From: Dipteris shenzhenensis
Taxonomy: Eukaryota
Assembly (NCBI GenBank): GCA_047967505.1
Contig: CM106538.1
Direction: 5' to 3' (one strand)
Length of the DNA stretch: 64,000 nucleotides
The position numbers were made by a program, and so were the translations under genes. Shown here in pieces: positions 849-59,298 of the stretch (positions within the stretch are counted from its first letter, which is position 1; each line of letters opens with the position of its first letter). The notes under the pieces are model-generated. The model saw only the letters and a list, made by a program, of their open reading frames with translations, searched no databases and was not told the DNA's origin.

Positions 849-889
<41 letters not shown>

Positions 890-21020: not shown

Positions 21021-21127
21021 ATTGCAAGCTATAGAATCGTACTGTGTACTTCAATGGAAATGAATAGAAGTTTATGAAAATCACAATCAATCTCACTCTA
21101 AAATTATTCTAGGATAACTAGACCTAA

Positions 21128-31274: not shown

Positions 31275-31759
31275 GGAGAAGAGGAAAAGCCTATGTACAT
31301 CAGTGAGCAACTTACTAAGGAAGAAAAAGAACTAAAAACACTTCCTGATGGAATACAAGGATTGCATGGCTTGGTCCTATAAGGACATGAAAGGGATGTC
31401 CTTTGAAGTTGTAGTACACACCATACCTACTAGGGAAGGATCCAAGGCTAAGGTGTGTGGACCGTATAAGACAAATCCAAGTATGGCACCCATGTCAATG
31501 AAGAACTTTAAAAATTATTCGATGCCAATTCCATTTATGATACTGAGCACATTGATGGGGTGTCACCAATTGTGGAAGTTGAGAATATGTATGAATCTCA
31601 AAAATTTTAATGCAACCACCACAATGAGAGATCACTTCCCCCTACCATTGACAGAGATAGTTTTGGAACGGGTAGTAGAATTAGAAATATACATCTTCTT
31701 CGATAAGTTCAGTGTGGGTACAAGCAAGTACAGATTGCACCTCAAGATCAGGCAAAGAC
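31275..31759 (+). pseudogene. Ty3/Gypsy (Athila/Tat-like) reverse transcriptase N-terminal fragment
   Basis: EYKDCMAWSYKDMKGM..HTIP and LRICMNLKNFNATT.RDHFPLP..IVLERV. Confidence 0.75.
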
Positions 31760-34201: not shown

Positions 34202-35639
34202 ATTCTGAGTTTGTTTGCAGGTTGAAGAAAGCCTTGTATGGCTTGCAAGCACCTAGAGCATGGTCTGACAAGATAGGACAGTATCTTGTCACCATTGGCT
34301 TTCAGATCTCCAAGGCAGATTTCTCACTCTATGTGAGAAAAATAGAGAAAGGTATTATGCTACTTGTCATTTATGTTGATGATTTGATCATCACAGGTGA
34401 TAGTGACGAAGATATCCTTCATGTGAAAATGCTATTGAAGCAGAAGTTTGAGATGAAGGATTTGGGAGAGCTACGTTATTTCTTGGGCATTGAGGTGATT
34501 AGATCACCAAGTGGGATATAGCTCTTGCAGAGACAGTATGGATTGGACATGCTATCCAAATATGGGATGACAGGTTGTAAGCCTATTTCAGTTCCTTTGG
34601 AGCAGAATGTGAAGCTAAGCACAGATGCAGGTGAGCTTCTGGAAGACCCTACTATGTACAGACGCATAGTAGGAAGTTTGATTTATATGACTATTACCAG
34701 GCCAGATTTAAGCTATGTTGTTGGATTGGTAAGTCAGTTTATGTAGGCTCCAAGGAAACCGCATTTGGATGCGGCTAGACGCATACTCAGGTATGTGAAG
34801 TCCACATTGCAGTATGGACTATCTTATGAGGCTGGGGTTTAGATACAGTTGCATGGATACATTGATGCTGATTGGGCTGGTAGTATTTCTGATAGACGAT
34901 CTACTAGTGGATATGTGTTCTCTTTTGGGAGTGCTGCAGTCACTTGGAGCAGCAAGAAACAGCCTACAGTTGCCTTGTCGAGCACAGAGGCTGAGTATAG
35001 GGGTGTAGCAATGGTTGCATGTGAGGTAGCTTGGTTGCATAAGCTACTCTATGATATGCATCAGTCTACAAATGGGCCAGTTGTCATTTATTGTGACAAC
35101 ATGAGCAGTATACACTTGGCAAATAACCCAGTCTATCATGCTAGAACAAAGCACATTGAGGTGCATTATCACTATGTGCAGGAGAAGGTTTTACTAGGTC
35201 TTATTGATCTAGTTTATGTCAGCACAGAGGATCATGTAGCTGACATATTCACGAAGGCATTGGGTGCAGAGAAGCTACGCAAGTTCAGAGACCTGCTTGG
35301 TGTGCAGGAATTGGAATTGAGCTCGAGGGGGAGTGTTGAGATATCGAGCTCCACTTGCGATATGCCAGGGTGACCGTTGTGCATTTATGTCACTGACTTG
35401 TTAGCTATAGATGTGGTTGGTACACCGCCCATGAATAATAGCTGGATGATAGCTATCCTTATCTACACTAGTTCGTGGCTCAGTTAGTATGCCACCTTTC
35501 TTTGTACTAGAGTTCTTTTGGATTTCACAACTAAGAAGAGGAAAACTATTTTCAGCCTCCACCTTTGTGTGTATTCCCCCATTGTGTATGTGAGAAAGCC
35601 GCAAGTGAGACTCCTTCCCTCTCTTCCACTATCTTCACA
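34202..35639 (+). mobile_element. 5'-truncated Copia family B copy (RT end, RH, 3' LTR 35334-35639)
   Basis: Near-identical to 27750-29237; LTR carries a 46-bp internal deletion. Confidence 0.93.
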
Positions 35640-38600
35640 TGTCAATTGCATGAAATGTGAAAGGGTCTCCTGTTATTATGGTGAGAACAACATTGTTGTG
35701 ATGTTTAATTAATCCGGTGAAGTAAAAGAAATGAGGAATTATTGAACTAGGTGGAGGGGACTTATAACAATTGCTGTGTATGTTGTCAATGTCTTTATCA
35801 GTTTTTGTGTTTCTGTCCTGAATCTATTAAGCATGTTTACAAACTCTGGATCTTCTTGGCATATTGGCTCTGTCAACTCATACTAATGTATGCAATATTG
35901 CCATAATTGTGCGGGTTGGAGAGCTGATGTTTCTTGAAATATCCACTTATCTCTAACTAGAAAGATTTGGTAAAGGTCACCATTAAAATGACATAAAGGC
36001 CACCAAATGGTAAATGTTGAATGTGCATGATGTCACATAGTCTTTGGTCAATAAATCTAAACATTCTACTACCCACGAGAAATTTCATCGATCACTATTA
36101 CTCTGAGCTCACTATAAGCTTTTGTTAACATGTCAAGTCTATTACAGTTAGTTGAAGGTTCTTGTTTAGGGTTATTTTGCAAGTGTAAACGGTTGACGTT
36201 TTCACAATTGATAGGAATGTATAAAGTTGAATGAATTTTGATTCTGTCTATGTTGCATGCAGCTTTGCCAGTATATGTAGATTTTAGTACTTTTAATGTT
36301 GAAGGATCTGCACCTAACCCTTTGTTGTAGGTTCTAGTTAGTTGTTCCACCAACAAGTTCAATACAGTACTTTTCCTTTTCCCTACTCCTCCAATGATGA
36401 AGATGTGTAACAGAGTGTTGGGGCTTATTCTTTTTTTGTGCATGATTATGTAATAAAAAATTAGTCTTTGCTTTTGGTTCAAACCTTGGATTTGGTGATA
36501 TTCTAGTGATGATAGCATGATGTGCTTCATTTCAACAATTTCAGACTTTGATTGTTTTATGCTTTGTTGCGATGATGTTGCATTTGTATTAGTAGATTAT
36601 TTTTCAAGGCTGGGATCATAGTTTGTGACATTGATTGTTGTCATTGGTTTTGCTAATGTTGTATTTTGGAAAGCTTCTTCCCAGAGCGTGTTGTGTGCCT
36701 CAGTTTTGCTAATTTATGGGCTCTTTGCTCTATGTCACTCCATTGTATACTTTTTTGTTAGATGTTTGCATATTGCATGTGAATTTTTTCCAAACAATTT
36801 TTATTTGTCCCTTTGTCATTTTGAAGGCATCACACTAGGTTTTATTTTGTTTTTTATGCTGCCTTCGTTTTCGTGAAAAGGCACACAGTAGAGCATGTTC
36901 TCTGTAATAGTTTATTCGATCATGAAATTTGTTATAGTGCACATATCAAATGATTTTTGCTTTCTTTCTTTCTTTGAAGCATTTGTACATGTTGTAGTAT
37001 GATGTTACTTTAGCAAGTGACAAGTTTCAATAGAGGTTGGACAACCAACATACCTGTCAATTGTGGAAGGGCAAATGATGTCAATACAGTTATCTGGTAG
37101 GGTATACAAAACTGTAGTTGGTTTCAAAACAAAGGCACGATCTTTTGGTGCTGATGTGTTGATGAATTTGCATGGTCTAGATGAATGGCGCATTGGTAAT
37201 GATAGGATTATGTACATTGCTTGTTGTGCTGACATTTGTTGCATGTTTAAAAATTTGCTTCCTAGCTTTCAAATATGAGTTCCTACATCGGTTTGTTCTT
37301 GGTGGCATCGTGTCATTATTTTATGCAAGTTTTTGTGATTTTGTTATCAACTTTAGTGATATATGATATGAAGTAGCTTGTAGCTGCATATGAATTGTGC
37401 ATCTATATTTGCTTGCCAGAGAGGTGCTGCATGTTTGCTAAAATAGTTCATCCACATGCTATGTAGTGGTCTTTCCAAGAAAAGAGTGGGTCTCTGTAAG
37501 ACACTTCAGAGGCATGTCATGTATTGTTCTTCATTCAAGTTAAGTTATTATAGGAATTGTGCAATAGTTTGATCATCAAAACTTGTGATGGAGTTTAATG
37601 ATGTGTATTTTTCGTGTAGCTTTGTTGTTGTTGTTTTGCAATGTTTTTCTAGTGGAGTAAAAATGGTTGTTTTGGTCATTGGTGGTAATGGATAATGGAA
37701 TCAACATATCTCCTCTTCTTTTTTCCTACAAGTGAAGTGTGATGATATGTTTTAATGTCACAAATACTAGGGTCTAGCAATGTTTCATCACAAGATATGC
37801 ATTTATTTACAAATTGTGTGACTTCCTCATTCGTCGCATTATTATAGCAAGGAGCATCTTTTATTCAAAGAAGTAGATGTTCATGAAAACCTCCACAATT
37901 TTGGGCTTCTGTGACTGAGAATAAATCATCTACTTGTCTGAAAATTGGTTGGCGGGTCTTTAAGAGTGCTCTTAGTGCTTGTGTCCGATGATTGTAATAG
38001 TGTGCACATGTCACTGGATTGTTTTGTATAAGTTCGTGCATTGTAATGTCTTTCTTATTTTGCCCAGGCTCTTGTACTATTGACTTTGCTAGAGCAACTG
38101 TTAAGTGATTCCATTTAGTCTCCGCACTCATGAAGGTCACAAAAAAGATTGGGGGCCCTAGCTGCCTAATCATTGTGAATGCATTCTTTCCATAATTGTT
38201 TCCAATAATCTGGCGATGTTCAAAGTTGCAATAAGTCACGATATCCTAGCTCTGACTGTGAGTATTTAATCTAGGTTAGGCTTTGTTTTAGCATCTTTTG
38301 CTATGAGTTCTCTTCCTTGTAATTTTGCTTTTTGTATACGTATCCATGTAGATCTTGCAACATTTTTTAAAAGTATACTCATCGCTTAAAAAAAAAGACT
38401 TGCTATGTGTAGAGCATGGCGTCTGTCTTTGTGGTGAATTCCCCATTTCACGCATTGATGATAGCTATTGTTTTGAAGTTTTTTTTTTTGCCTTGGATAG
38501 CCAAAGAATAAAGTTGGATAATTTTGTTGCTCACAGTGTTTATCTTTGAGTATGAATATTGGCTTTTGGTCTTCAATTCGAGCTATAGCTAACACTTGGT

Positions 38601-39400
38601 TTTCACTATCGATGAACATAGCATGTGCATTTGTGAAACTATGTAGAAGTATGTCTATAATAGTTCATTTGGATAATTTTGATGTAACATGATGTCGTCT
38701 TTGTATTTTTGGTATTATCTTCTTTGATTGAAGTTTACAACTGAAACAAGGAAAGCCATTGTGTAGAAATTGTTATGCTTGCTTCTCTGTAAATAGATGT
38801 GTTGATTGTACTATGCAAAGCCTTCATAATACAGTTTGGATGTACAGTTCCTGTGGTGTACGGGTTCTTGTGTTGTAGACGCCTTTTAACTACTATAGCA
38901 ATTGTTCCTTGATCATCTAGCTAGCGAGGCAAGGCTATTTGTATAATATCGACATTGTTTGGACATTGATAATGCTTCCTTTCATAATATATTGTCCATA
39001 TCCAAAATGTTGTCATATTTGTGCAAAAGTTGCGCGTAGTGCTATCAAATGTTCTTCAAGTTCATTTGGATTAAATATTTCTTGAATGCATGTATTCAAT
39101 TCCATTTTAGTTGGGTCTGTATATTATGAAATTTTGTCTTTATTGATGTCTTATAAGCAAGCCTTGCATATGTTAAAGCTATTAGAAAATTCGAGTCGGT
39201 TTAAAGCAGCTTCATCGCGTAGAAATGTTATTATGTTCTCATCTTCTTGTGTCATTTGTCTAAAGAAGAACAATCTCTAACAACAAACAACATGCATAAG
39301 TAGGGGTGTTTGCAATAGTTTGCTTGAAATGTTTAATAGCTCTTACTTCTACCAATACAGAGTCTATAAATTGATGAGTAGTTTTTCTTTTATTAAGGTA
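35640..39400 (-). mobile_element. Decayed Helitron-superfamily Rep/helicase gene of Helentron/Helitron2 type, 3' end cut by the Copia B LTR
   Basis: DUF6570-like ELEEHLIALRATFAQI..GYGQY..GSIINV and YPTLFFG; Rep motifs MIRQLGPPIFFVTFMSAETKW, VTEAQNCGGFHEHLLL (HUH), YAATSYFISYITKVD; linker MSAQQAMYIILSLPMRHSSR..FINT; PIF1 motifs IIGGVGKRKS, YTGKAA, VIVIDEIS. Confidence 0.88.
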
Positions 39401-39639
39401 TTTGGCTCAATGTTTTCTTGGGTGTAGCCAATCGCAAAACTATTTTTGGGGCCATTTTGGGGCTGCAACACGATGCGTTGGTGGGTGAGATTTTGAATTT
39501 TGCGCGGACCCATGCTATCGTCGAACTTTTTCCCGACATCATGATTGCCACACTGGCGTAATAATGAGACACAATATCATCATTGTCAAAAAACACAGAG
39601 CTTAACACATGGCACTATATGCATTTACTCATGGGCATA

Positions 39640-39716
39640 GATTACATCACATAGCTCTACCTCTAGCCTGATTACATCACATACCTCTACCTCTAGCCTG
39701 ATTACATCACATAGCT
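39640..39716. repeat. 30-bp tandem repeat, 2.5 copies
   Basis: GATTACATCACATA(G/C)CTCTACCTCTAGCCT repeated. Confidence 0.9.
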
Positions 39717-39968
39717 TTTGCCTTGCCAACTGTCATTGTGCAACTTCATCATCTGTCACTACGCAACACAATCTTTTGTTGTGTTGAACACCATACAGGT
39801 TCAAGCAATGATGTTGGCATAGAGCGACCACCACATTGGCCTAACTACAGCACAAAACTTTTGCCTTACCACCTGTCATTATGCAGCTTTGCCATCCATC
39901 ACTATGCAACACAATCTTTTGTTGTACTAACCATCGTGCTAGTTCGAGCAATGATGTTGGCATGGAGA

Positions 39969-42900
39969 TGTGAGAGAGGATAGCACACAAAAAGGGATAA
40001 GGAGACACTAGAAGTGGTGGAGCAAAAGCTACTCTAGCTTATTCCTCTATCATATATATATGAGTATACATGGGCATTGTACAAGTGGGCGGGCACACTA
40101 CCCTTTACCCCAACAACCTCCCACTTAAAGGCAATATGCCTTTAAGGGAGTATAGTACACATATAATACAATCAGCCATAGGCTAAAAAACAAGATGACC
40201 AAACCATCATCTTATGCACATCGGCACTTTACAATGTGCAAAGTGCATGGAGGATAAGCTGCTAGTAGACATCAAGTCAGCAGGATAGAAAATGACAAGC
40301 TGTAGTTGCCTGTCAACCAAGATCTCATGCCAGATCTCGTTGGGAGAGTGAACTCTCACCACCACGTGCTCTTGTGCTAAGTCCATAGCACCTGAATTGT
40401 CACTGTACAAAGAAAATGTCTTTGCACCACCTGTGACCATAAGCACATGCCCTACAACAGACCTCTGCTGGTCTACCTAACCTGCATCACCTGCATGTTG
40501 TTCTTGGAAGCGTAAGGACCTGATGTCCACAACCGCTTCCCTACTACCAAAATTTGCCATAATCATGCTGCCAACTTCCACTACAACAGAAGCAAGAACC
40601 GGAAGTGTAGCCCCAATGGCAAACATGTGAGAACCCAGTCTCAACCCAGTCATGGATTCATGAAGTACTATGGCTTCCATATCAACCATAACTTGCTGTT
40701 CAATTGATCTGTGATTGTCAAACCTGTTGTGTTTCACGTATGGAGCCAATACAGGCAATGGAGTACTCAGTAACTTCCCCCTCTCCATAGTGAAACAACC
40801 AAGTATTTGAAGACAAACATCATCAAGACCATGCAACTCCCACTACAAAGCATCCCTGTCCATAAAGGACCATATGGCAAGTAACCTCAAAAGGATAGCA
40901 ACCTCCTGAATAGTGAGACCATAAGCTATCTCACTACACATCAAATCCTGAGCTCTCATAACGGTATCAAACCTATGAAGCCAAGCTCGGGGGGATTGCT
41001 TCTGGCCATGGAGGCACTTACAAAGCAAACATGTCAATGATTCCTGCCCATGCGCAATATGACCTGAGTTAATAACTACAGAAACCACATCTATCCTAGC
41101 TTAACCAGCCAATGGATCATACCGGGCATCATTAGCCAAGGTATCCTCCCCACCATGCATAGCCTCATCCTCATCTGCAGGAGGCACTCTGCATCTTGGG
41201 AGCAAATTGTGAATGTCCATAGAAGATGCATCAACAATCTCCATAGGAGTATAAACCTGTGGAATACTCGAGACATCTAACCATCTCTGACCAAAATCAC
41301 GAAGTAATCGTGGCTGTCCCAACTTTATAACCTGCTGACCATGGGAAAAACCTCCCACTCCAAGGGATATGGGCTGCCCCTGTAAAGAATTCGGAGGTAT
41401 CAATGCACTTACACCCTCCTAAAACACCACTCTCCTACTATCCACAGTCTTCGGCTATCTAAACATAGCATCCTCTCTGAAATAGACATTATGGCTGCGT
41501 ATCAGCTCTCTAGCTGAAGAATCCCATAACTTGTAGTCCCTACTGGACTCACTGTATCCAAGAAAGATACACCTCCTCGATCGGGAATCATGAGCATAAG
41601 TCTCGCAGCCAAACACATGTAAATGCTCTTAACATGATGTCCTACCTATCAAGAAGTCAAATGGCACTCTACCATCCAGAGATCTCTTGGGTGACCTATT
41701 AGGCAAGTATGCAGCTGTCTTACATGCCTCAGCCCAATAGCATTCGGTTAGACCTGCATATCATAGCATGCTATCAATCTTGTCGAATAGAATCTGATTT
41801 ATGCCTTCTACCAAGGCATCGTGAGCAGAAAGGTAAGGAGTGGTCAACACCCTCCTAATACCAAGTGTATCACATAGATGCTGAAATCTAGGAGAGGTAA
41901 ACTCTGCATCACCATCAATCATCAAGCTCAATAGCTTCTTTCCTGACTAATTTTTAGCATTACCCAAGAAGTGCTTAAATGTATCATATACATCATGCTT
42001 CTGACGAATCGAATATACCCATATGTACTTTGTAGCAGCATCAATAAATGTCACAAAGTAAGAGGCACCACCCAGTGAAACGGTAGGCATAGGCCCACAA
42101 ACTGCACTATGAACCAACTGCAATGGCTCAACATACCTCTCACTGACTATCTTCCTCACAGAAGAGGATCTTGACTGCTGACCATCATGACAATCATGAC
42201 ATAAAATCTGAGAGACATCCATAATACGAATGTATCTTGATTTTGTAAGGGCTTCTATACCTGCAGTAGACATATGTCCAAGTTTAGCGTACCATAAACT
42301 AACTAATGGCTACTTACTAATCATAAGCATCTGATCTTGGACACCTGATACATGCAATGCATAAGAGAATCCAACCCGTGATCCCCTAGCCATAACTAAA
42401 GTGCCTCTAGCAATCTTCCATGCATGATCACCCAAAGAGACATGATAACCTGCCTCAACCAACTGTCCAGTACTAATCTTGCTCATAGCAAGTCCTAGTA
42501 TATGTCTAACCCTCTGCAGAACAAGAATAGAGCCACTAGGCATAACAAGGTGGATATCCTCGTAACCATAGATATCCATAGAATGATCACTGCCCATTAA
42601 ACTATCCCCCACAATGCATTCCTGATATGCACTGAACCATGACCTATGAGGGGTCATATGACATGAAGCACATGGATATAACATCCAATCACCGAGAATG
42701 GGTACATCAGTGGCCAAGAAGGAGGTGTTAAAGGTGCATTCATCACTGTTACTTTCAATGGAAACCCTGGCATCCATGCCTTGAAGCTCAACATGCTTCT
42801 TCTCCTTCTTCTTGTCATTCTTAACCTTGCTCTTCTTCTCGCATTTTCTTAGCCATTTCTAGCAGTACTTTTTCATGTGGCCATACTTTCCATAATAGAA

Positions 42901-44463
42901 ACATCTAACACAAGTCCGAGAGCTAGACTTGCTCTTGGAATTCCCCCTTAAACATGACCTGTTTCTACCAATTGATCTACCTCTAGAGTGCATATCAAGG
43001 ATGTATTTCAGCCCATCAGGGCATTTCAACCCATCATGCTGTAACATAACACTATCATGGTCATACATCCGGCATATACGAGTATAGAACTCATATGCAT
43101 GGCAATCTACACCCTGTACACCATCCTGTACCTGCAAGTAGACTGACTTCGAGAGTGATGACTGAATGATAGAGCGTGCTTGCTCATCCATATCATCCCA
43201 GTCACTCTGTTTAATGCTATTAGGCTTGACACTTTTGCATTAAATGGGCTTATGCTGCCTCTTCTGCACTAACACATCATAAATTTACTCTTTCCAATAC
43301 TGAAAGTTCGATCCATCCAACCTCTCAATATCAAAGAGGGCACTACCAGCTGTAGATGCCATATCTGTGTACAATATCTCACAACCAAAGAGCAGTACTG
43401 TACAATAGGCAACCCAAATGACCAAAAAATATAGTGCTGTCCGACCAATCAGGTCTCCAAATAAATTGGATGATCCAAAAGCACTCAGCCATAAGGAGGC
43501 ATAAACAAGAATATATGCAGCCCAGTAACCTGCCAATGCTTGGCAATCCAAGTAAGCAATGCACTGAACCAAATGAGCAATGCCTGCTCAACCAATGGCA
43601 GTAGGAGCCCAGCTTAACTATCCATAAACATCAATGCGGCATCCACCAATGCAAATCCATAATGCATCGAAATGGCATTTACTGCATCACCAATGCATCA
43701 TCTCAAGTGTGCAACCCTTTGGCATCAAAATCAAGCATTCACCACTTGCTAAATGTGCCAAATGACTTGCCAATAATGCCCTTGGATTGATGCTATAATT
43801 TTCTCTCAATCTACTGTCAAAGTTTCACCTTACCTCACAGCCAAGAGTAATTTATTTTGATGCCAAGAGTAATTGAAGTAACTGATTACACACGGTGCTG
43901 CTACACTTGCGATACTAAGTGTCGATAGTCTCAAATTGACCAACAAGATGTGTGCAATAATTATCAAAAATATCTGATGGAGCATGAATTACTAATAAGG
44001 CCCCGATTAGCAATACGTGATAGAGCAATTGAATCAAGTTTGCATAGCTCCAGAGGCCAAAAGCTAGAGTTGGATTCATAGGGCTTGGTGATTATGCATC
44101 ATAGATGTGTATCGATTTCTAATACACAGGCATCCTTCATACAGGCCGATTAGCCACACACACATCGATTGCACATAGGCATTGCAAGCCAACTTGAGCT
44201 GCCAAGATTTGTTGTAACACTCCACCAAGAAAATGCCTCGATTGAAGAAGCTTCACAATCACTACATCTCGGAATTCACTTCTCAGACATTGTAGCTCAT
44301 TGGATCTGATACCAGTTGTGAGAGAGGAGAGCACACACAAAGGGATAAGGAGACACCAGAAGTGGTGGAGCAAAAGCTACTCCAGCTTATTCCTCTATCA
44401 TATATATATGAGTATACATGGGCACTGTACAAGTGGGCAGGCACACTGCCCTTTACCCCAACA
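39969..44463 (-). mobile_element. Complete but non-autonomous Ty1/Copia element, family D (related to A)
   Basis: 147-bp LTRs 39969-40115 and 44317-44463 (7 differences); TSD GGAGA; PBS reverse complement 44304-44314; PPT AAGTGGGAGGT; gag ATG 43362; protease DSG and RT YVDD lost. Confidence 0.92.
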
Positions 44464-44539
44464 GGAGAGACCACCATGTTGGCATGAAGACCACAGTGGC
44501 ATGTCAATCTCTAAAGGGGACCCCTCAAGGTCCATATCT

Positions 44540-45060
44540 ACAACCACCGTGCTGGTTATTGGGGCTATTTTAGTTCTCCAATTCATTATTTATTGATAAG
44601 AGTATTCATTACTCTCTTGATGCCTCTTTGGTATAGAGACAAGGAAAATATAGCCTTATTTTGGATCTATTTTAGTCCTATTAGTCCTTGTGCAATAATT
44701 TCTCAACCACCACACTGGTTCTTGGAGCTATTTTAGTTCCAAGCTAAGTAAAATGTAGACATTTACAATTTATGATAGTTTCCTTGCAACCACTACGCTG
44801 GTTATTGGAGTTATTATAGTTCTAAACCATTGCACTGGTTATTGGAGTTATTATAGTTCTAAACCAAGGAAAATATACTGCTATTTTGAAGCTATTTTAG
44901 TCCTACTAGTCCTTGTGCAACAATTTTTGCTAGTTCTTGGAGCTATTTTAGTGCTATTTTAGTTCCAAGCTAAGGAAAATATAGTCCTATTTTAGAGCTA
45001 TTTTAGTCCTTTTGCAATAATTGCTTGTGCAACAATCGCATTGGTTGCACTGGTTGCAGT
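44540..45060. repeat. Degenerate repeat array CAACCACC.TGCTGGTT.TTGGAGCTATTTTAGTTC
   Basis: Multiple copies; core is the reverse complement of the 19270-21020 motif. Confidence 0.8.
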
Positions 45061-45164
45061 ATATTCTCGATCCCTATGGTTGTAGTAAAATGTAAATGAG
45101 AGCTAAAATATGCCATTTGTGCTTCTTTAGAGCCACTTTCACTACCAAAGTAATAGCAACAAAA

Positions 45165-46005
45165 GTTTTTGCGATCATGGTACTACATTGAAATTGAAAC
45201 ATCCGATAGTTTTTGCGATAATAGTATTACATCGATAGTTTTTGCAATAATAGTACTACATTGAAATTGAAACAAAAGAAATTACATCCGATAGTTTTTG
45301 CGATAATAGTATTACATCAAAATTGAAACAAAAGAAATTACATCCAAAGCAAACATTTAACAAAAGAGATTACATCCAAAGATGCTAGCACTTTGTCTTT
45401 GTGACACTTCTTTAAACACTTTTAGCACTTGTCAACACCACCGCTGTGGCAGGACCTCATGTCACTTTTTGCCCTTGTTATCACTTTCTTACACTTTTGA
45501 CTTGGTGCCTCGTATGCAGGGGACAATACAAGCACCTCATAGAGTTAGCATTTTCTTATAATTTTAACTTGAAACTCCTCGTATATGTAGGGGACGATAC
45601 GAGCACCTCGTAATTGAACATAACCTTCTTCATAGAAACTTCTTTCCTGTAATCGAGCACAACCTTTGACAATGGGCAAGAAACTCAATCTAGTGGTGAG
45701 CTCCAGCACACTGATGCTCTCAGTGTGCTAGAGCTCATTACCAAGTTGAGTTTTCCTTCCCCAGTGTTGAAGGTTGTGCTCAACCAAGTTGAGTTCTCTC
45801 CTAGTGCCTGATGGAACAATGATGACAAACATTTGTAGTAGCTGATAATGGGATCAAGTGTTAGAGCTCATCACGAAGTTGAATTCTCCTTCCCCAGTGC
45901 CAAACGTTGTGCTCAATTACGAGAGGCTCATCAGAAGTTGAGTTCTCTCCCAGTTCTTGACGGAATAATGACAATGGACATTTGTAGAGCTGAGAACAGG
46001 ATCAA
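45165..46005. repeat. Tandem repeat blocks (45165-45380 short units; 45730-46005 about 135-bp duplication)
   Basis: GATAGTTTTTGCGATAATAGTATTACATC and TTGAAACAAAAGAAATTACATCC repeats; GAGCTCAT..AAGTTGA.TT.TCCTTCCCCAGTG..GTTGTGCTCAA x2. Confidence 0.75.
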
Positions 46006-46306
46006 ATGCGATAGACCTAAAATCCATTCTATAATCCCCTCCTTAAGACCTGTTTCCCTTGGCTCCCCATCCTACAACTCCCTTGGTCATGGCTATGGCT
46101 GGTGGAGTGTTGTAGGATGGAGAGCCAAGGCAAACAATGGATCCCATGACTTGGGCAGCATTATGAAGGGCATTGAGGTTGTAATAGAAGATTCATCAGA
46201 GGGGTGGAAGGTGGCTTGGAGAGCATGGAAGGGGGTAGGAGAGGGATTTTCTTGGGTGCGGTGAATTGTTTATCTACCCTTAAGGCCTTTATATAGCTAG
46301 ACTTTC

Positions 46307-49300
46307 TGACAAAATATGAAGAGGGGAGAGGAGAAGAGTGGAGATGAGGAGAGAGGGCACAGCTAGAGAGCACACCACAAATGACTAACTGTACACTAGA
46401 TTTAGTTGAAAAAATAGAATATATACAAACCCTTTTAGCGTTAGGGTTAGGGGTTCTAATCCTTTCCTTTATAGCACTCTATAAGGTTAGTGCTATGCAC
46501 ATATGATCACGTGATGGTGCTATGCACACATGATCACATGATGTTGAGTGTGAACTCTCAAAACCTTCCCCAAGATCAACATCATGAAGTAGGCCTTCCC
46601 TCAAGATGATGATTCTGGGGAATCAAAGAAGGACCGAGCATTACATTCCATCACACCCCTTTAATGGGAATGTCCTTCCTCTGCATCAAACCAAGAGCTA
46701 GTCTGTGTTTCTCGAATAGCTCTTTACCGAGTGGTTTGGTAAAGATGTTTGCAACATTTTCTTTGCTATCACAATGCTGCAGTGTGATGTCACCAAGTAA
46801 CACTCTTTCTCTGATGAAGTGCTTTCTGACATCAATGTGCTTTGTCCTGGAGTGATATACTGGATTTTTGGCCAATGCTTGAGCCGATTGATTATCACAG
46901 TATATTGTTGTTGTCTTTGACTCATCAAAGTAATCTGTTTCTGACAATAGTCTTCTGAGCCATATAGCCTCACATCGACCTATAGTGAGTGCTCTATATT
47001 CTGCTTCAGTCGAAGACAAAGAAACAGTTGGCTATTTGTTTGACAACCATGATATAGCACCTTGACCAAGGAAAAATGCATATCCCTGTGTCGATCTCTT
47101 GGTCTCATGATCTCTTGCATAGTCACTGTCACAGTATCCATGCAATCATGGATGACTTCCTCTATATTCTATCCCAAACTATCTTGTACCTCTGATGTAT
47201 CTCAAGACTCTTTTGGCTGCATTCCAGTGAGACTGTTTTGGATTTGCCATAAACTGTGCTAGTGAGCTTACTGCATCTGGCCGTGTGATTGTCAGATATA
47301 TAAGAGATCCGATGAGTTACCTGTAGTATCTGTCATTGACTGTAGGCTTTTATGAATCTTTAGTAAGTTTCAAACTCTGTTCCATGGGAGTGGCTACAAT
47401 CTTGCAATCTGCCATATGAAACTTCTTCAGGAGACTGTTAACATACTTGAGCTGACTCATGAATGTGCTATCTGAATCTCTCCAGAACTCAATTCCAAGA
47501 CAATATTGCATAAGTCCAAGATCTTTCATGTCGAACTCTGTAGATAAGTCTTATTTCAATTTTCTGATGAAGCTATCCTTGCTTCTTATCACAATCAGAT
47601 CATCTACATACAAAAGTGCAATAGTAATGTCTTCCCCTTGAACTTTGTAGTAGAGAGTATGATCTGCATTGGATTTCATGTATCCCAGATTAGCAAAATA
47701 CTTGTCAATTCTAGTGTACCAACTTCTAGGTGCTTTTTTTAAGCCGTAGAGTCTTTTCTTGAGATGGCAAACCTTTTCTCCTTTCTTGGTTCAACATAAC
47801 TTGTGGGTTGTTGCATGTAGACTTCCTCGTCTAGATAACCATTGAGAAATGCATTCTTGACATCGAGCTGATACACATTCCATTTACTGAGTGTCGCTAG
47901 TGATATCAAGAACCGTATGGAATCCATCTTTGCTACTGGAGCATAAGTCTCATCATAGTCTTGACCATATTGTTGTGCAAATCCTTTTGCAACTAATCTG
48001 GCTTTGTATCTCTGAATCCTGCCATCTGGATTGTACTTCACTTTGTATACCCGTTTGTTTGCTATGGCCTTCTTTCCTGGTGGAAGCTCGCATAATTCCC
48101 AAGTATTGTTCTTATACAAAGCATCCATTTCTTCATTCATAGTAGTTTGCCATTCTGGCTTGTCTACTGTGTCTTCGAAGTACACTGGCTCTTCTGTAGC
48201 CATGATGGTAGTCATAAGAGCATAGTTAGTGGTTTCCACCTGAATTGCTTTGCCTTTCTGAGCATATGTCAATCTGGCTGGTGGTTTGCTTTCCCTAGTA
48301 GACCGTTTGAGCTGCTGTGGCTCTGCTTGGGGTGTTTCTGGCAATTCTTACTCTTCTTCATCAACTTGTTCTGTAGATGACTGTGAAGTCAATGCTTCTA
48401 TCTCCTGTGTAGGTGAGGTTTTCCATTCTGATTTCTCATCAAAAATTACATCTCTGGAGATAATGACTTGTGGTTGATGGGATCATACAATTTGTATGCT
48501 TTGCTTTCTTCACTGTAGCCAACCATGATGCATTTGCGTGACTTTGCATCCAATTTTCTGCGATGATCATCATGTATGTGAGCATATGCTATGCAACCAA
48601 ATATGCGGAGATGCCCAATGCATGGCTTGTGTCTAGTGAATGCTTCATAAGGAGTCATACCTTGTATCGGTTCAGTAGGAAGCCGATTAAGCAAATAGTT
48701 AGCTGTAGCTATTGCTTCTGCCTAATACTAATTTGGAAGATGCTTTTCACTAAGCATTGCTCTAGCACTGTCTGCTAAAGTCCCATTCTTCCTTTCAGCT
48801 ATTGCATTGTGCTGAGGAGTATCTGCACATGTGAATTGTCTTCATATGTCGTGACTTTTGCAAAAGTTCATGAATGCTGAAGACATGTATTCACCTCCTC
48901 TATCTGATCTCATGACCTTGATCATTCTACCTGTTTGGTTTTCTACCATGGCTTTGAATTCTTGAAATCTAGAAAACACTTCAGATTTCTCTTTCAGAAA
49001 GTAGACCCAACAATATCCGCTGTAGTCATTGATGAAGGTCAAGTAATAAAGTGAACCATTGATGCTGTGGGTCTGGGCATAACCCCATACATCTGTATGT
49101 ATCAAATCAAGAATACCTCATGCACGAGAGGTACTTTTGACAAAGTTGGTTCGCTTTTGTTTGTCGAAGCAGCATGCTTCACAAACTTTTCCAAGAAACT
49201 GTAGCTTCGGAATCCCAATTGCCATATTCTGATTCCTGAGATCTAACAAGTACTTGAAATTGACATGACCATATCTCTTGTGCCATTTTGCAGATAGTGG

Positions 49301-52300
49301 CATCTGTTGCATTTGAGCTGACATGGCATGCTTATCTGAAACTGTAGCTAGCATTCTGTATAAGCGTCCTTCCTTAACACCTTTTGCTACTAGCTGACAT
49401 CTTTTGGATTTGTCTCTGATAGTGCATTAATCACCATTGAAGATGACTTTGTAATTGTGTTCCATCATTCAACCTACTGACAAAAGGTTCTTGGTGAGCT
49501 TCGGAACATAGAGCACATCTTTGACTAATCCTTTTGTACCAGTGAAATTGTTCATAGGGATAACACCTATCCCTTGAATTGGATTCGGTGTATTGTCTGC
49601 TGTGTAGATGACATTTTTTTGTCCTTCTAATGGCTTCATTTCTGTGAACCATTCCTGATGATTTGTCATATGAGATGATGCACTGTTGTCGATGTACCAA
49701 GGATCCTATTCCACTTGGTCGACTTGATAGCTGAAATCCTCTTTGGGATTGAAATTAGTGTCTAGGTGCATTGTATCAGTCTGATGCAATTCCTCGCTTG
49801 CAGGAAACATATTTCCATGTTCATTTGCAAAATGACTGTGACTAGAATGTCCACCACAATGATTTCCTCTTCCTCGGGAATTCCCTCGATTACTGCTGGA
49901 TTAACCGCCTTGGTCATACTGCTTCTTGCAGCAATCTCTTTCATAGTGTCCAAACTTGTGATAGTAGTTGCACTGGATGTTTGACACATTGGTGGATGCA
50001 TTCCCTCATCCTTGAAATCTTCCTTGATTGGAATGATTTTCTCTTTGCTGATTTTGATGTTGCTGAGGATGATTTTGTTGATGATGACCACTTTTCTGGT
50101 ATGATCTATCTCTATTTCTACCTTTGCCTCTGCTTCTATCTAAAGCTGTGAATGCCTGATCATTAGAATGACCTTTACGTGCTTGAATGGCCTGAGTCCT
50201 GAGTTCTTCATCAAGTAGAACTGACTGAAGTCCTTCCAGTGTTGGAATTTACCATTGGATGGCAATACTCTGAACTAGATTCTTGTATCCCTCTCCTAGT
50301 CCATTCAGGATTACTTGAACCATTTCTGTGGGGTTCATAGTCTCTCCTACTGCTACAAGTTGATTGTTGTAGTCTTTAATGCGGAGTACATAAGCATGAC
50401 TGTTTTCACTGCTGTTGCGGAAACTCTGGTTGATCTAGTTTCTCAAGGTGAGAATCCTAGATGTGTTTTTGGATTCGTAGAGAGCCGCAAACATATCCCA
50501 TGCTTCTTTTGATGTCTTAACTGTGTTGAGCTGTCCTAGCATGACATCTTGCACATTTTGCTTGATCAGGTGATAGGCATACTTGTCTTTCTTATCCCAT
50601 ATTGTGCTTGAGCTCGGGCAACAGCAAGATCTACTACTGGTGCGAAAACTGTTTGTGTAGATGTAGATCCCGATGTAGATCCCATTACTGGTGCTGTGAC
50701 AACAGATGGAGTAGAGCTAGTGGTAGTTGGATCATCCAATGGTCTAGGTGTAGACCCATCGACATACTCCCATTTGTCCTAAAGCACAAGAATGGTCTCC
50801 ATTCAGTATTTCCATGTACCGTAATTGGAGTTGTCTAACTTAGCAGATGCCTCCAGATTGAGGTTTCTAGTCGACATGGTGCAAGAAATGTACTCAAAAG
50901 TGTCGTGAAGATCTCTATATGAATCAACTACAAATACACTGAATATGCCAAGTGAAATCTCTGTACTGTCGGTGAAGATAGAACTGCAGTATATAAAATA
51001 TGATCTGTATTACAAGGCTTGTGGCAATGATGCCGAGAATAGCCAAGAGGCTTTACAAGGCTGAAATGATGTGCACGATGCCATGAGATAGCCAAATGGG
51101 CTTTACAATGGTGGCATGTGTGTGTGAAATCAAATGCTATCTGCCCACTGAATCAATCTGCAATGTTCTAAACTCTGAAGTCTACTCATTGAACTGATGA
51201 ACATAAGGTTTCAAGTAATGTAATGATGTGAAACCGTATGTGAGTGTATGGACTAACTCTGAGTAAGTACTAGTCGGGAATTTCGGGCATGGCTTAGATT
51301 GGTAACTTGGGAAAATTCAAAGCGTCCCCTCTATGGCGATCTAGTCTACTCTGATCTAGATCTAAACCAACCATCGATCGATGAAAGAACAGCAAATAAT
51401 TCCTTTTCTTTTGTTCTTTTTAAGTGCTGGGTCAGATGCATCGATGTAGAGGCAAATGTGCATGAAGGAAGTGGTTTTGTCAGCGAGGCTCAAATGTGAG
51501 TGTAACTTAAACCAAAATGTGTGCATGATGTGACGAGCGCGTAGAGAACAAAAAAACGAGCGACTTTCCTTTTTGGAGTGCCCTCAAATTCTTCCTAGAT
51601 CAAGAGATATGACTTGATCTATGTGGAGGGGCAAAAGGAGTGCAAATGTGCTCAATGATGATGTGCCACTGTGTCACATGCAGTAATGATGTGGCACTGT
51701 GCCTAGCAAGAGGTGTGCCTATGAAGCTCTGTGCTGAGGTGGTAGGAGTGGTCACATGAAGTGCCTGTGGAGCACTGTGTGTGCCTGGCAGGGGTCAATG
51801 TTGACTGGACTATTGAGGTGGCACTGCTAAGGTGGCACAGATGATGTCAGCAAGGTGATGTGGTAGTCGTGATGATGTGGTAGTCGGTGATGACGCGGCC
51901 TAATGACACGGCACTGATGATGTGATAGGATGATCTGGTCTGCTTACGTGGCATTGATCATGTGTTAGTTGAGCTAGGCTATTGATGTGGCAGTTGGAGA
52001 TAAGATGACACGTGGCTGGGTCAGATGCGTCGATGTAGAGGCAAATGTGGTTGGCTGGTTGTGTGGAGTCATCTGCTTATCGATCTATGATCGACTCAGG
52101 GCTTACGGAGACTGCATCGCCCTCATGAAGGCCAACCTTCTTGCTAGAGAAGCCTAGAACGTGCAATGCGTAAAGAGTGAACAAGCAAACATAGAATTGA
52201 CAATCCCCATAGCAACTCTAAGTGAATAACTAGGCTCTTACTAGTCTCTCTCTCCCTAAAGAGAAAACTATCACAAGAAGAAATGAAATCTCTCAAGGAA

Positions 52301-52742
52301 TATATCTCATAATGGAATGAGAACTCTCAAAGAATGGAAATGGAGGAAATGGACTGAAAATTCTTCCAATGAATGAAAATCTTTCATCAACGGAATGAAA
52401 GATAGAAACCTATCAATCTCACAATCTCTCTCACACTCTCACGAATTGCAATGCCTCAGCAGAAGGCAAGGAAGCTCTGATACCATGACAAAATATGAAG
52501 AGGGGAGAGGAGAAGAGTGGAGATGAGGAGAGAGGGCACAGCTAGAGAGCACACCACAAATGACTGACTGTACACTAGATTTAGTTGAAAAAATAGAATA
52601 TATACAAACCCTTTTAGGGTTAGGGTTAAGTGTTGTAACCCTTTCCTTTATAGCACTCTATAAGGTTAGTGCTATGCACATATGATCACGTGATGGTGCT
52701 ATGGACACATGATCACATGATGTTAAGCGTATACTCTCAACA
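46307..52742 (-). mobile_element. Full-length Ty1/Copia LTR retrotransposon, family C
   Basis: 257-bp LTRs 46307-46563 and 52486-52742 (about 12 differences); TSD CTTTC; PBS reverse complement 52474-52485; PPT reverse complement at 46564; about 1.6-kb leader. Confidence 0.96.
46651..50877 (-). pseudogene. Copia C gag-pol polyprotein, many stops and frameshifts
   Basis: WYIDNSASSHM, HTDVWG, SDRGGEY, QLDVKNAFLNG, STEAEYRAL, YCDNQSA. Confidence 0.92.
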
Positions 52743-52859
52743 CTTTCCACCCTCCCACTCTTTTTCCCTTCATTTCTTATGTCAGTTTGTGTGACTCTGG
52801 GTGCCTATCACTATTAAGAGCACATAATCCACCCACTGGATTTTGTTGGTAGCCCAACC

Positions 52860-53640
52860 TAGCATAGGCGGTCATATACATCATTATCTAGCCATGACAT
52901 GCGATTAGATGGTTGCCATGGGAGAATTTATAGGTCATCAGAGCCAAGATCATAATAATTCAATGGGATGAGGGGAGACGAGCGATGGCACATGCACCTA
53001 GCTTGCTAGTAGTCTAGCCTAGTGTGGGCAATCATATACATCATCATCTAGCCACCCATGACGTGCAATTAGATGGTTGCCATGGGAGAATTTCTCGATC
53101 ATTGGAACATTCTAACAGTCTAATATGTTCTTATAGTCTAACTCCAACTTAATGCTAATCTGAGCATGAAAATTAGATGGTCCCTCATGCAATGTCATTG
53201 TTATTACAGTCTAATTCTGATTCAATGCTAATCTAAGCCTGTGAACTAGATAGCCCACTAGATGGCCCCTCATGCAAAGTCATTGTTGCTACAATCAACT
53301 ACCTTGAAGAAAGGCAAGATCAAAATAAGACATCAGATTATCTTTGAGTCGCTTCATTAGACTGTAATAACAATAGTTCTCAGTCATAAGAACAAGAACT
53401 ATTGTTAATACAGTCTGATGAATTGACTGAATGCTAATCTAAGCTTGTGAACTAGATGGTCCCCCATGCAAAGTCATTGTTATTATATAGTCTGATTCTA
53501 GCTCAATGCTAATCTGAGCCTGTGAATTCTATAGATGGTCCCTCATACACAATCATTGTTGTTACAGTCTCATTCTAACTAAATGTTAATCTGAACCTAT
53601 GAATTAGATGGTCCCTCATGCATAGTCATTGTCACTAAAA
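52860..53640. repeat. Tandem repeat arrays (about 70-bp duplication 52860-53095; about 75-bp units 53120-53640, one inverted)
   Basis: AATGCTAATCT.AGC..TGAA.TAGATGGTCCCTCATGCA..GTCATTGTT..TACAGTCT repeated about 5 times. Confidence 0.85.
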
Positions 53641-54430
53641 CAAGCGTGGTGGTTGTTTGGGATTAGTATACTGTTTAGGATTTACATTTTCCCTTGTTTG
53701 GGATTTACGAAAACAAGCTAGTGGTTGTTTGGGATTTACTAAAGGTTATATTTTGTGGGGGTTACAGTTATTCCTAAACCAACAAAAATGCATTTCCTTG
53801 CCAGAGCATCTACCTCCTCTAGCTAGTGCCTACCTTCTCTAGCCTTAACTATCATACAACTAACCTGTCATATTCATCAATGTAATGTGTTGGGAATCTA
53901 TCGGTACATGGGTCTTTAAAGATGGCAAAGATCTCATTGGATTACATCATTGAGCATGCCAAGATGGCTTGATTTGACAAATTAGAATATGTGAATAATT
54001 ACAGCTTGGATATCAGGAGATCAAACTAGCTTGGGTTGCAGTTAATAATCCTAAACCAACAAAATGCATTTCCTTGCCAGTACCTACCTTCTCTAGCCAG
54101 TTGGGACCATGACTTGGATCCATGTTTCCTCGGCCCTCCACATAAAGGGGGGGATTTTTTAACAAAAGTTTTAAGAATTTACTTTGCATTTGTTGCATGA
54201 ATGCATTGAAAGAATCATTTGTAGCATTGAAAGTTATTAATCTTCAAACTTTTACATTAATGCATGATAACTCCTTTGCATTTCATGTAATTAAAAAATT
54301 TAAGAATGCATAGGGTGGGGGTCATCGTCAAATTCCCACCTACTCACTATTGTGTGGCAAATGTAGCTCTTTGCTAGTGTCACGTGAGAAAGCTTTCCAC
54401 ACACACACACAACAAGATCTACTCGCAAAC

Positions 54431-56061
54431 ATGGCCTCAACTGCCAACACGAAGCAAAAAGTAGGGGAAGAGCTAAGTAAGGGCAAGCACAAGAGAATGA
54501 TGAGAAGCATTCGGGATGCCTTTTTTGTTAGGGTGTGCAACATGGAGGAGAGTGAGATGGAATCAACCTTGTCTAGTCTAGAGGGAGGTAGCACTATGAA
54601 GAGGAGGATTCTTGATGATGCTAAGAGCAATTTGCAGTCTGAAGGTCATGATGACCTTGCCAGCCAGGTGCAATGGGAGACAGATGCCATGCTTTGGGTT
54701 GACAAATTTATTGGGAATGCAAAGACCCACTTCAATGAAGCATGCAATGTAGACCCTAGTACTCTTACACAAGAGTTTGATGTCTTCAAATCAACACAAT
54801 GGATGGGTGTATGGGCCAAGCACAAGAGTAGGGTCATTGGATCAGATTGCCGTGTCATAGTGGCTAAGAGCTGGGAAAAGAAAGCTATAGCAACTTATGG
54901 GCAGCGAGCTATGTCCCTGGCCACAAGTGAAGAGCAGCTAGCCTCTATGCCCTCTCAACCATTGAGAGGTGATGAGGTTCAAAGGGCACAACACTTGGCT
55001 AGTAACATAGTCACAGTGTCAATCTTGGCCTATGTCACGGATCCAAGTTGGCGAGAAAATCGGCTCAGGCACCTATGGCACTGTATTTGAAGTGCGGTTG
55101 GTAGACAACCATATCACATGGAATATGCCAAAAAGAAGTACAAGGGCAATATTGTGATGTGTACATGAGAAGCAAGGAGTGAACAACTCATGCAGATTTT
55201 ACACCCAGTCCTTGTATGTGTGATCGCAACAATCCAAGAAGACCACTATGGATCATCACACCATACTTTAATGGTGGTAGCTTGTTGCAGTTGCTTCAGA
55301 TTTTGCCAATGGACCAAGGCAAGTTCACATGCTACTTCCACCATGTTCTAATCAGAGGAGCAGATCTGATGGCCATTGCGAGGGAGGGAGTCTAAGCTAC
55401 ATTGGAGAAGGAAGATATTATCTGAATCAATGTCTTTGTTGAGAATCTCTTCCATATCATCCATGCACTTGTGGATGGTTTAGCAATGTTGCATGCAGGG
55501 AGGTGGATGCACATAGACCTTCACCTGGGCAACATCTTATTGGACTTTTTTGGAAAGTCTAGATGCCAAGGAGGCATTATAGACTAGAAGATGGCCATGG
55601 ACTTCGCGGAGAGTCGAAAGGCATTCAAGCATCTAAAGAAGAAGTATTTGGAGACACATGCCAACTTTACTAAGAGATTTCATAGGAAAGAGGAACTGCA
55701 TGGGCAGAAAAAGTGGCTTGCACTTGAGCTACAAGAAGTAGCCTTAAGAGGAAGATATACATGCCATGCAGATACCTATGCATTCGGATGGATCATTGTT
55801 GAGATGATTCAATTTTTTGAAGATGCTTGGGGTTATCTTGAGAATGATCAAAAAATGCCTCCCTCTCATGTCATTAATGCCATTAAGCATCATGCATAGG
55901 AACAAATGATGCATTGCATTGCCAATCAGAGAAAGCTACCTATAGAGACCAATGATATCTTAAAGAGAGTAGAATGTGAGGGAGAATTGGCTATGAGGCC
56001 TATGGAAGAGATGACTCTTGCCCTTAGGCTTGTAACAAAAGCCACATTTTTTGCCTTGTAA
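54431..56061 (+). pseudogene. Intronless eukaryotic protein kinase pseudogene with about 200-aa N-terminal extension
   Basis: Subdomains in order across about 3 frameshifts: VGEKIGSGTYGTVFEV (55047), EYAKK (55121), ILHPVLV, LWIITPYFNGGSL, LVDGLAMLH..WMHIDLHLGNILL (55510), IID*KMA, KWLALEL, YTCHADTYAFGWII. Confidence 0.85.
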
Positions 56062-56699
56062 TATTCTTGAGACACCATGTGTCTATCAAATGTTAAACAA
56101 GCAATGTTAAACAAGCACTGGTAGTATTGTGTTAAACTACCAACGGTAGTATTAGCACTATCGCCGGTAGTATTGATACTACCGTTAGTATGTATCCGGT
56201 TGCAAGTCAGGGCCACCTGATAGCATAAAGGTGTGATTGTACTCGTGATTACATGAAATACACCATCACAACACATAATCACAAGAAAATTCACATGATT
56301 ACGTGAATATGCAATCCTTAGTACTCACTTCTATACTAACATCCATATGAACAAAAATGTTTACATGGGGGATTCATAGGTCCATTTAAGTATACAAGTT
56401 TACATGCCATTCACATGCATAACAAGGAAATAGATTCCCGAGCAGCCTTATGGAAACTTTACTTGCATCTGCAATGTTTACATGCATTTCAATTGCATGA
56501 TATATATACATACATGCATATATATGTATGTATATATCTATGTGGCCACTTGGATCGTCATCGTGTGTTACAAGGGAAAGCAAGTTTAGTGTAGCATACT
56601 ACGTTTTGTGTGGGAGCTAGTGATTTGTCCAAAGGTATATTCTAAGTGGCACCTAGATTACTTCCAAGTTCCTCTCCTCCCAAAATAAAAAAGAAGGAA

Positions 56700-58564: not shown

Positions 58565-59298
58565 TGTTGAGATATCAAGCTCTACCCCCGATATATCTCC
58601 TGGATGACTATCATTTATGTCACCGCCTATGTTTGTTGTACTCGTGGTGTAGTTAGACTACCACGTATGTTTTTGGTTTGGGTTCACATATGAACCACGT
58701 ATTCTAGGTTTCGACATATAGGGTATTTCCCTCTTCTATTGTATTGTTGTTGTGTGTTGTGAAGAAAGCTGAACTTGAGTCTCCTATCTCTTTCCCTCAT
58801 TCTTTACATGGTATCAGAGCCTTGTTCGTGGTAAGGAGCTCAAGAAAGCAAGCCAAGTTTGTGGTGTCCTGGTAAGAGGACCACTGTTGCTTTCCTATTT
58901 CGAGTTTGGGAGCAAATCTCTGCAGGTAGCACAGCCAGAAGTGCAGGAGTGCACTGTTTCAGATTGAGAGGCCCTTCGCGGTGTGGCGAGAGCGCAGTAG
59001 GGCGTAAGGGCGAAGCCCTCGGTGACTTTATTTTTCTGATTTGAGGCCGTTTCGGGCCCCGTTTTGAAGGCGGAAGTTCTTTGCAGGCACTCAGAAAAAG
59101 GCCCTGTTTTTCGCTGTGCGACCACTGCGGTGGAAAGGTGCCACCGAAATTGCATCGTATGCCTGTGTGCAGAGATATTGGGAGTTGCAGATTCATGCCT
59201 GTTGCCTGTTGATGCAAAATCGTCACTAGGAAGTGACTGTGTGGTGAAATACCACTTTCGTCAGTGTTGCAGATCTGCCCCTGTGAGGCTTTTTGCAG
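58565..59298 (+). mobile_element. 5' LTR (58565-58808), PBS and leader of a Copia B-related subfamily, truncated
   Basis: TGTTGAGATATCAAGCTC..TTTACA, PBS 58809-58820, leader highly similar to 24082-24540. Confidence 0.9.

Follow-up and report, generated by a model that had tools for sequence, protein, structure and literature searches.

A probable HLE2 Rep/helicase relic beside an orphan kinase pseudogene in nested-repeat DNA from Dipteris shenzhenensis

To our knowledge, rolling-circle transposons of the HLE2 (Helentron/Helitron2) clade were thought to be absent from land plants until 2024. The accessory genes so far attributed to rolling-circle transposons are RPA, OTU, EN (an apurinic/apyrimidinic, or AP, endonuclease) and similar genes. 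As described in the HELIANO survey, HLE2 elements, including land-plant ones such as HelenSM92 of Sphagnum magellanicum, encode an HUH Rep and a PIF1-type helicase in one gene; in the same account, HLE2 elements occur in 13 of 74 land-plant species and 6 of 8 classes, and the EN, DUF6570 and Herpes_teg_N domains are almost exclusive to HLE2 (PMC11417382). Helentrons and their derivatives are also described as typically holding internal tandem repeats (PMC4067079). Here we analyze a 64,000-nucleotide stretch of Dipteris shenzhenensis DNA (GenBank assembly GCA_047967505.1, contig CM106538.1; hereafter the window) that likewise contains an HUH Rep and a PIF1-type helicase, in a dead gene about 4 kb from a dead, intronless protein kinase gene. 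A preliminary description made from the sequence alone had proposed that both genes belong to one large Helentron-type element, with the kinase as a standing cargo gene. Both genes are relics, and both are older than two Copia elements inserted into the locus. On balance, we favor the view that they are independent relics brought together in a graveyard of nested repeats, and not a demonstrable composite element.

The Rep/helicase relic and the reconstructed locus

The decayed Rep/helicase pseudogene occupies 35641-39429 on the minus strand. On this strand, Pfam detected Helitron_like_N at 37868-38245 (E 7e-14) and the start of PIF1 at 36072-36596 (E 9e-6). The Rep core (37679-38245) has one in-frame stop and keeps its HUH motif as H-E-H, with H121 and H123 invariant in all 14 rows of the alignment. 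The N-terminal part of the PIF1-type helicase, which includes the Walker A region (35641-36680, minus strand; PIF1 and AAA_19), is broken at a Copia long terminal repeat (LTR) ending at 35643. The order of an HUH Rep followed by a PIF1-family helicase on the same strand was co-linear both by tblastn and with a profile hidden Markov model (HMM).

A word-index search recovered 21 relatives of the Rep (33-39% identity, E 1e-21 to 3e-9), of which those with a named source are from an acorn worm, oysters, a mussel and a springtail. All 21 contain Helitron_like_N, 15 contain DUF6570, 9 contain Exo_endo_phos and 8 contain OTU or Herpes_teg_N. In tblastn, the only part of the window that the 21 relatives matched was 39429-35641, where their alignments were co-linear. 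When we built a profile HMM from 14 full-length Rep/helicase relatives (1999 positions), positions 274-1567 fell on 16 open reading frame (ORF) pieces between 39406 and 35638, with at least 15 interruptions across 3.8 kb, and the profile matched no other part of the window. The last ~430 of the 1999 positions, which cover the end of the helicase and the endonuclease, had no match anywhere in the window.

Scanning metagenome contigs with the Rep alignment yielded 255 confirmed relatives, and 80 loci were retained. The best of these, L001, has an intact 2181-aa ORF at 7205-13747 of a 20-kb contig. This ORF encodes, in order, two OTU-like modules, DUF6570 (635-743), Helitron_like_N (857-1042), PIF1 (1498-1700) and Exo_endo_phos (1985-2153). 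The window copy aligns to amino acids 546-1769 of L001, with a Rep core that is 39.8% identical. Upstream of this core, a stretch at 38744-38962 (minus strand) resembles DUF6570, as it matches L001 amino acids 676-748 (42% identity, E 1e-14), which lie inside the Pfam DUF6570 domain of L001. The Pfam DUF6570 model itself gave no match on the decayed window copy. The ORF of L001 is flanked by direct repeats of ~620 bp (5759-6378 and 15561-16182, 77% identical).

The domain make-up of these relatives supports the assignment of the Rep/helicase gene to the HLE2 clade, on a comparison with the 21 relatives, all of which have HLE2 architecture. The PDB, which contains the HLE1 transposase Helraiser, returned no Helitron transposase at E ≤ 1 when searched with the Rep core. 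The architecture of the relatives and the DUF6570-like stretch support the term Helentron-type as far as the HLE2 clade. The term large element is not supported: what remains is a relic, cut at 35643. Within the window, this copy has no helicase C-terminus, endonuclease domain or 3′ terminus, and it also lacks the OTU N-terminus found in L001, its nearest intact relative. Although no AP endonuclease was detected in the window, this absence is uninformative because the gene is cut upstream of the place where EN would be expected. A plus-strand match of L001 amino acids 1767-1888 at 31399-31653 (E 0.23) was dropped, as it had no support from the profile HMM.

Two Copia elements, both on the minus strand and both with Copia-type pol/gag Pfam matches on that strand, separate the Rep/helicase gene from the kinase. 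Copia D (39966-44463) is flanked by the target site duplication GGAGA at 39961-39965 and 44464-44468, and its LTRs (39966-40115 and 44314-44463) are 94.7% identical (8 mismatches in 150 bp). Copia C (46307-52748) is flanked by CTTTC at 46302-46306 and 52749-52753, with LTRs (46307-46569 and 52486-52748) that are 95.1% identical (13 mismatches in 263 bp). Both are clean later insertions, as the preliminary description had stated. Excising them joined 35644-39965, 44469-46306 and 52754-56300 into ~9.7 kb, in agreement with the ~10 kb originally given. With the Copias removed, self-BLAST revealed that a ~143-bp tandem unit at 39696-39965 resumes beyond Copia D and continues to ~44483. The presence of this unit on both sides of Copia D is independent evidence that the flanks were formerly contiguous.

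The left edge of the locus has a different character. The LTR at the helicase break (35333-35643, plus strand; repeat families D2, D3 and D9) belongs to a truncated Copia B-like fragment; it abuts the helicase and ends it. This fragment, the 3′ part of an element 95% identical to Copia B (34192-35643, with RVT_2 at 34192-34518), follows a truncated Copia C-like piece (31760-34153, minus strand, 82-94% identical to Copia C), such that two truncated Copias meet within 31760-35643. Since the LTR end coincides exactly with the helicase break, we interpret this junction as a deletion or rearrangement and not a clean insertion.

In the reconstructed sequence, the Rep/helicase gene (minus strand) and the intronless kinase gene (plus strand) lie head-to-head, as had been described, and the spacing of about 4 kb was confirmed. 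From the end of Rep/helicase homology at 39429 to the putative kinase ATG at 54431, the distance is 536 + 1838 + 1677 = 4051 bp. At least six arrays, tandem or palindromic and unrelated to one another, make up this spacer. The first, at 39640-39965, consists of 30-bp units and then the ~143-bp units that cross the Copia D site (Tandem Repeats Finder, repeat family D16 and self-BLAST). The segment at 44469-46306 contains arrays or palindromes at 44537-45036, 45199-45345, 45649-46008 and 46051-46136. The segment at 52754-54430 contains arrays at 52843-53102 and 53126-53640 (77-bp unit), a palindrome at 53335-53440 and a repeat at 53759 and 54033. With a cut-off of E ≤ 0.01, Pfam gave no family across 44464-46306 (six frames) and nothing but the kinase across 52749-56400 (three plus-strand frames); on the minus strand of 52749-54300, Pfam coverage was of ORFs of at least 60 aa. 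The earlier observation that tandem arrays, and no host-like gene, separate the two genes is therefore correct in that the spacer has no protein-family match, and the internal repeats to which it appealed are a described Helentron trait (PMC4067079). Self-comparison of the Copia-removed sequence uncovered no long-range inverted or direct repeats fit to mark the ends of an element. An array upstream of the kinase (53634-53743) has inverted matches of 29-39 bp (87-91%) at 20430-20527, near an OTU-like remnant discussed below.

The kinase pseudogene and its orphan family

The kinase pseudogene extends on the plus strand from the putative ATG at 54431 to a natural TAA stop at 56059-56061. Its coding sequence is co-linear with its relatives, and no intron is needed. 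Pfam matched single ORFs only weakly (E 0.0011). When stops were read as X, the region ~55237-55855 matched PK_Tyr_Ser-Thr with 32.4 bits, above the curated cut-off of 23.1 (E 7.5e-8). Four successive ORF pieces of the window also fit an HMM of the kinase family in order (E 1e-13 to 1e-33). With a profile score above threshold and the catalytic motifs in order, the gene falls within the eukaryotic protein kinase superfamily.

Counting lesions between 55047 and 55900, we found three frameshifts (~55047-55087, 55104-55108 and 55237) and five in-frame stops (55166, 55393, 55423, 55585 and 55897) in the kinase domain; a further stop at 55088 marks a frame change. Because the stop at 55585 replaces the W codon of the DWG motif and the domain is frameshifted, the window copy is dead. 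The two genes are similarly decayed, as had been proposed. Upstream of this domain, which has 8 lesions in ~0.85 kb, a 258-codon stop-to-stop ORF (54314-55087, plus strand) is unbroken. Pfam gave no family for this ORF, and none of the searches turned up a relative; it would form the putative N-terminus of the kinase, coding from the putative ATG.

No poly-A tract follows the kinase stop at 56061, and no second kinase copy was found in the window, including near the OTU-like remnant. About 80 bp past the stop lies a palindrome with 26-nt arms (56138-56190), where four GGTAGTATT-type motifs are clustered (56119-56190). The window contains 8 such motifs in total, compared to 1.2 expected. The palindrome and the GGTAGTATT cluster could be a terminal structure; there is one copy, and chance fits equally well.

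To place the kinase, we compared it exhaustively by phmmer with 1.84 billion representative proteins. This comparison gave 27 matches at E ≤ 1e-3, 8 at E ≤ 1e-10 and 1 at E ≤ 1e-30 (E 5e-34). The closest relatives are fragments of 78-193 aa that are 55-58% identical to the window copy, namely P0024 (193 aa, 57%), P0025 (115 aa, 58%) and P0027 (78 aa, 55%), while the longest intact-looking relative, P0026, has 354 aa and 33% identity. Two of the 27 matches, a repetitive protein (P0036) and a canonical tyrosine kinase-like (TKL) kinase (P0044), are plainly generic or spurious. Nearly all the other relatives are short pieces that start at internal methionines, of the kind that ORF callers yield on decayed or fragmentary copies. 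Among proteins of 330-1050 aa, word-index searches gave 0 matches to either the N-terminal ORF or the kinase domain. Scans of metagenome, viral (two alignments) and prokaryote genome contigs yielded no kinase relatives.

The members of the family share a Gly loop, (A/G)KK(Y/L), a long insert, IIHALVDG...HxDLHxxNxxLDF, GIIDWG in place of DFG, PWxAPE, DVYALGW and a C-terminal RPxxE(L/M). Against solved structures, the family profile reached only E 1e-9 (B-Raf, RIPK1, LIMK2 and a Plasmodium MAP-type kinase). An AlphaFold model of P0026 based on 15 sequences had a mean pLDDT (predicted local distance difference test) of 58, and look-alikes of P0026 in the ESM Atlas were generic kinases only. By sequence comparison, the kinase represents a small, very divergent orphan family known only from fragmentary ORFs. 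This family is the sole unusual item of the locus.

Relation of the kinase to the transposon

We asked how often such a kinase accompanies HLE2 transposases. The comparison set consisted of the 80 HLE2 loci with flanks of up to 10 kb (550,441 bp), which we searched by tblastn with 26 kinase-family proteins and the two window ORFs. None of the 80 loci, which are distant (32-41% Rep identity), contained the kinase or its N-terminal ORF at E ≤ 0.01. Comparison of the Copia-removed sequence of 35644-58800 with the same loci by tblastx gave 806 high-scoring segment pairs at E ≤ 1e-5, of which three, all short (18-33 aa), fell outside 35600-39350 and the rest inside it. Since the loci are distant, both results weigh lightly. 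The GC content of the Rep/helicase gene (0.347) resembles that of its relatives (0.30-0.35), and that of the kinase is 0.42-0.47.

The literature was similarly silent. The word kinase does not occur in the HELIANO main text and one supplementary file, and no kinase is among the 20 stably carried domains as that text names them (PMC11417382). Full-text literature searches returned no report of a Helentron-borne kinase; among the 6 papers that contain both Helentron and kinase, neither word occurs in any title or abstract. The proposed role of the kinase as standing cargo of the family was therefore not supported, and the caveat that came with it, of unidentified termini and an unproven linkage of kinase to Rep/helicase, still holds.

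Two alternative explanations carry little weight. A chance match in non-coding DNA, to which the weak single-ORF Pfam match would be congenial, deserves practically no credence: the read-through score exceeds the curated cut-off, and the phmmer relatives and the ordered matches to the family HMM refute it. Alternatively, the gene could derive from an ordinary host kinase, as a retrocopy or a duplicated pseudogene, and lie beside the transposon by accident. This origin would agree with an intronless, dead gene, and transposable element-rich regions gather pseudogenes. We consider it improbable and reject a retrocopy, as the stop is followed by no poly-A and there is no close parent: word-index searches among proteins of 330-1050 aa found nothing, phmmer found no full-length close relative and solved kinases are reached only at E 1e-9. 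Given its distance from ordinary kinases and its lack of poly-A, we take the kinase to be neither a retrocopy nor a fragment recently derived from a host gene.

The serious competitor is the proposal that the Helentron family carries the kinase as standing cargo, transcribed divergently from Rep/helicase, with the 5′ terminus of the element beyond ~56.1 kb, perhaps near the palindrome at 56138-56190. We regard this proposal as possible but tentative. It would account for the adjacency of the two genes across 4.05 kb of arrays alone, for a kinase that is not a host-like fragment and for an orphan, fragmentary family of the sort expected of a repeat-borne gene. In HLE2 elements, as described in the HELIANO account, accessory ORFs lie upstream of RepHel and 17 of the 20 extra domains are in separate ORFs (PMC11417382), and Helentron ends are described as having palindromic subterminal repeats (PMC4067079), which the palindromic cluster past the kinase stop would recall. 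Set against it are the 0 of 80 HLE2 loci with a kinase, the absence of kinases among the domains that HELIANO names and of the words Helentron and kinase alike from the titles and abstracts of the papers that contain both, a GC content ~9 points from that of Rep/helicase, the loss of the N-terminal OTU region, such that the 5′ side may be rearranged, and the window's having neither a terminus nor a second copy. In its most specific form, a land-plant HLE2 family with a long-standing, divergently transcribed passenger that is a full-length orphan kinase (HxDLHxxN / DWG), the proposal seems to us rather unlikely.

We therefore lean, though not strongly, toward a graveyard juxtaposition of two independent relics. 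What the sequence shows directly is the identity and extent of the two relics, the insertions and the decay. In this scenario, an HLE2-clade rolling-circle transposon would once have inserted here, leaving the dead minus-strand Rep/helicase gene. At the 35643 Copia LTR junction, this gene would have been deprived of the rest of its helicase, any endonuclease and its 3′ terminus; the OTU N-terminus is also missing. A dead copy of the orphan kinase, with no host-like relatives, would have come to lie ~4 kb upstream, past heterogeneous arrays and in divergent orientation, and the two Copia elements would have inserted afterwards. The kinase is then more likely an independent relic than a Helentron passenger; it would stem either from another, unrecognized mobile or viral element or from a gene family restricted to a lineage.

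Several observations weigh against juxtaposition. There is no host-like gene between the relics, and the spacer is made up wholly of tandem arrays, which Helentrons are described as carrying (PMC4067079; PMC7492417). No Helentron 5′ terminus was found within 39430-54430. The Helentron is the only recognizable non-LTR mobile gene near the kinase, and the density of decay is alike in both (at least 4 lesions/kb in Rep/helicase and ~5/kb in the kinase). The kinase family, which consists mostly of internal-methionine fragments, appears to behave like a repeat-borne gene. Finally, 80 loci at 32-41% Rep identity say little about cargo that is specific to one family.

The preliminary description had also named an OTU gene at about 18 kb as a possible second cargo. 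With L001 amino acids 61-204 as query, tblastn against the whole window gave a weak OTU-like match (plus strand, 18062-18432, E 1.5e-4). Its Cys box has GDYLF where GDCLF is expected, and its His box reads HFEP. Pfam OTU did not match at this position, and neither OTU, EN nor other Helitron-linked Pfam domains were found in six frames of 16900-23730, 29240-31800 and 56300-59300. A weak remnant is thus present, and a gene is not. Reading it as an OTU relic is plausible but weak. The remnant is on the strand opposite to Rep/helicase, 17 kb away with two Copias in between, and OTU, a standard HLE2 domain, is fused in-frame within the transposase ORF of L001. For these reasons, it is neither cargo nor part of the Rep/helicase gene in the window, and it would at most be a scrap of another Helentron.

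Genomic setting and comparison with known systems

The window looks like land-plant DNA, with a host gene as the pointer. An ORF at 2-964 (plus strand) that runs off the left end is host-like and matches DUF1685 (Pfam E 1.5e-24), a plant-specific family. The bulk of the remaining window consists of nested LTR retrotransposons. Copia A (11001-16902) has LTRs that are 97% identical and an intact 1025-aa pol ORF at 13446-16520, and Copia B (23724-29241) has LTRs that are 98% identical and long ORFs; both look young. A Gypsy-type element with protease, reverse transcriptase, RNase H and integrase domains lies on the minus strand at 59229-63288, with a Copia B-like fragment at 58788-59288 on its left side. 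The ratio of observed to expected CpG is 0.17-0.40 over the repeats and 0.79 in the DUF1685 ORF. Because CpG is depleted, the Rep/helicase and kinase locus lies in long-silenced DNA. As it stands, the locus is ordinary decayed, methylated, nested-repeat DNA.

Each further plant HLE2 relic adds to the known range of the clade. If the kinase were a true passenger, a signaling enzyme would join the accessory genes of rolling-circle transposons, and the origin of the orphan kinase family would be explained. The result would be a kinase-bearing rolling-circle transposon, with a class of cargo outside the 20 domains catalogued for Helitron-like elements.

Compared to described HLE2 elements, the window copy shares the DUF6570-like stretch upstream of Rep, the adjoining tandem arrays and the plant genome setting, and its nearest relatives carry EN, DUF6570 and OTU. 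It differs in being dead, cut and without the OTU N-terminus; no EN domain, 3′ hairpin, subterminal repeats or TT target is visible for it in the window, and its Rep is only 32-41% identical to those of the relatives we retrieved. Internal tandem arrays associated with Helentrons are shared with DINE-1/HINE elements and with oyster Helentron derivatives that have satellite-like arrays. As those elements are described, however, the arrays lie between defined subterminal inverted repeats and occur in many copies, whereas the window arrays belong to several unrelated families and have no defined terminus (PMC4067079; PMC7492417).

A non-transposase gene beside Rep/helicase also recalls gene capture by plant Helitrons in maize and rice. 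In the captures described, HLE1 elements contain recognizable fragments of host genes (PMC2575219). In contrast, the window kinase is full-length, intronless and without a host-like parent, and its position inside an element is unproven. For the kinase itself, the nearest solved structures are the TKL kinases B-Raf, RIPK1 and LIMK2, with which it shares the Gly loop, the catalytic Lys, a catalytic loop ending in N, an activation segment ending in APE and subdomain IX. Unlike these kinases, to which its profile is related at E 1e-9, the family has HxDLHxxN for HRDLKxxN, DWG for DFG and a long insert before the catalytic loop.

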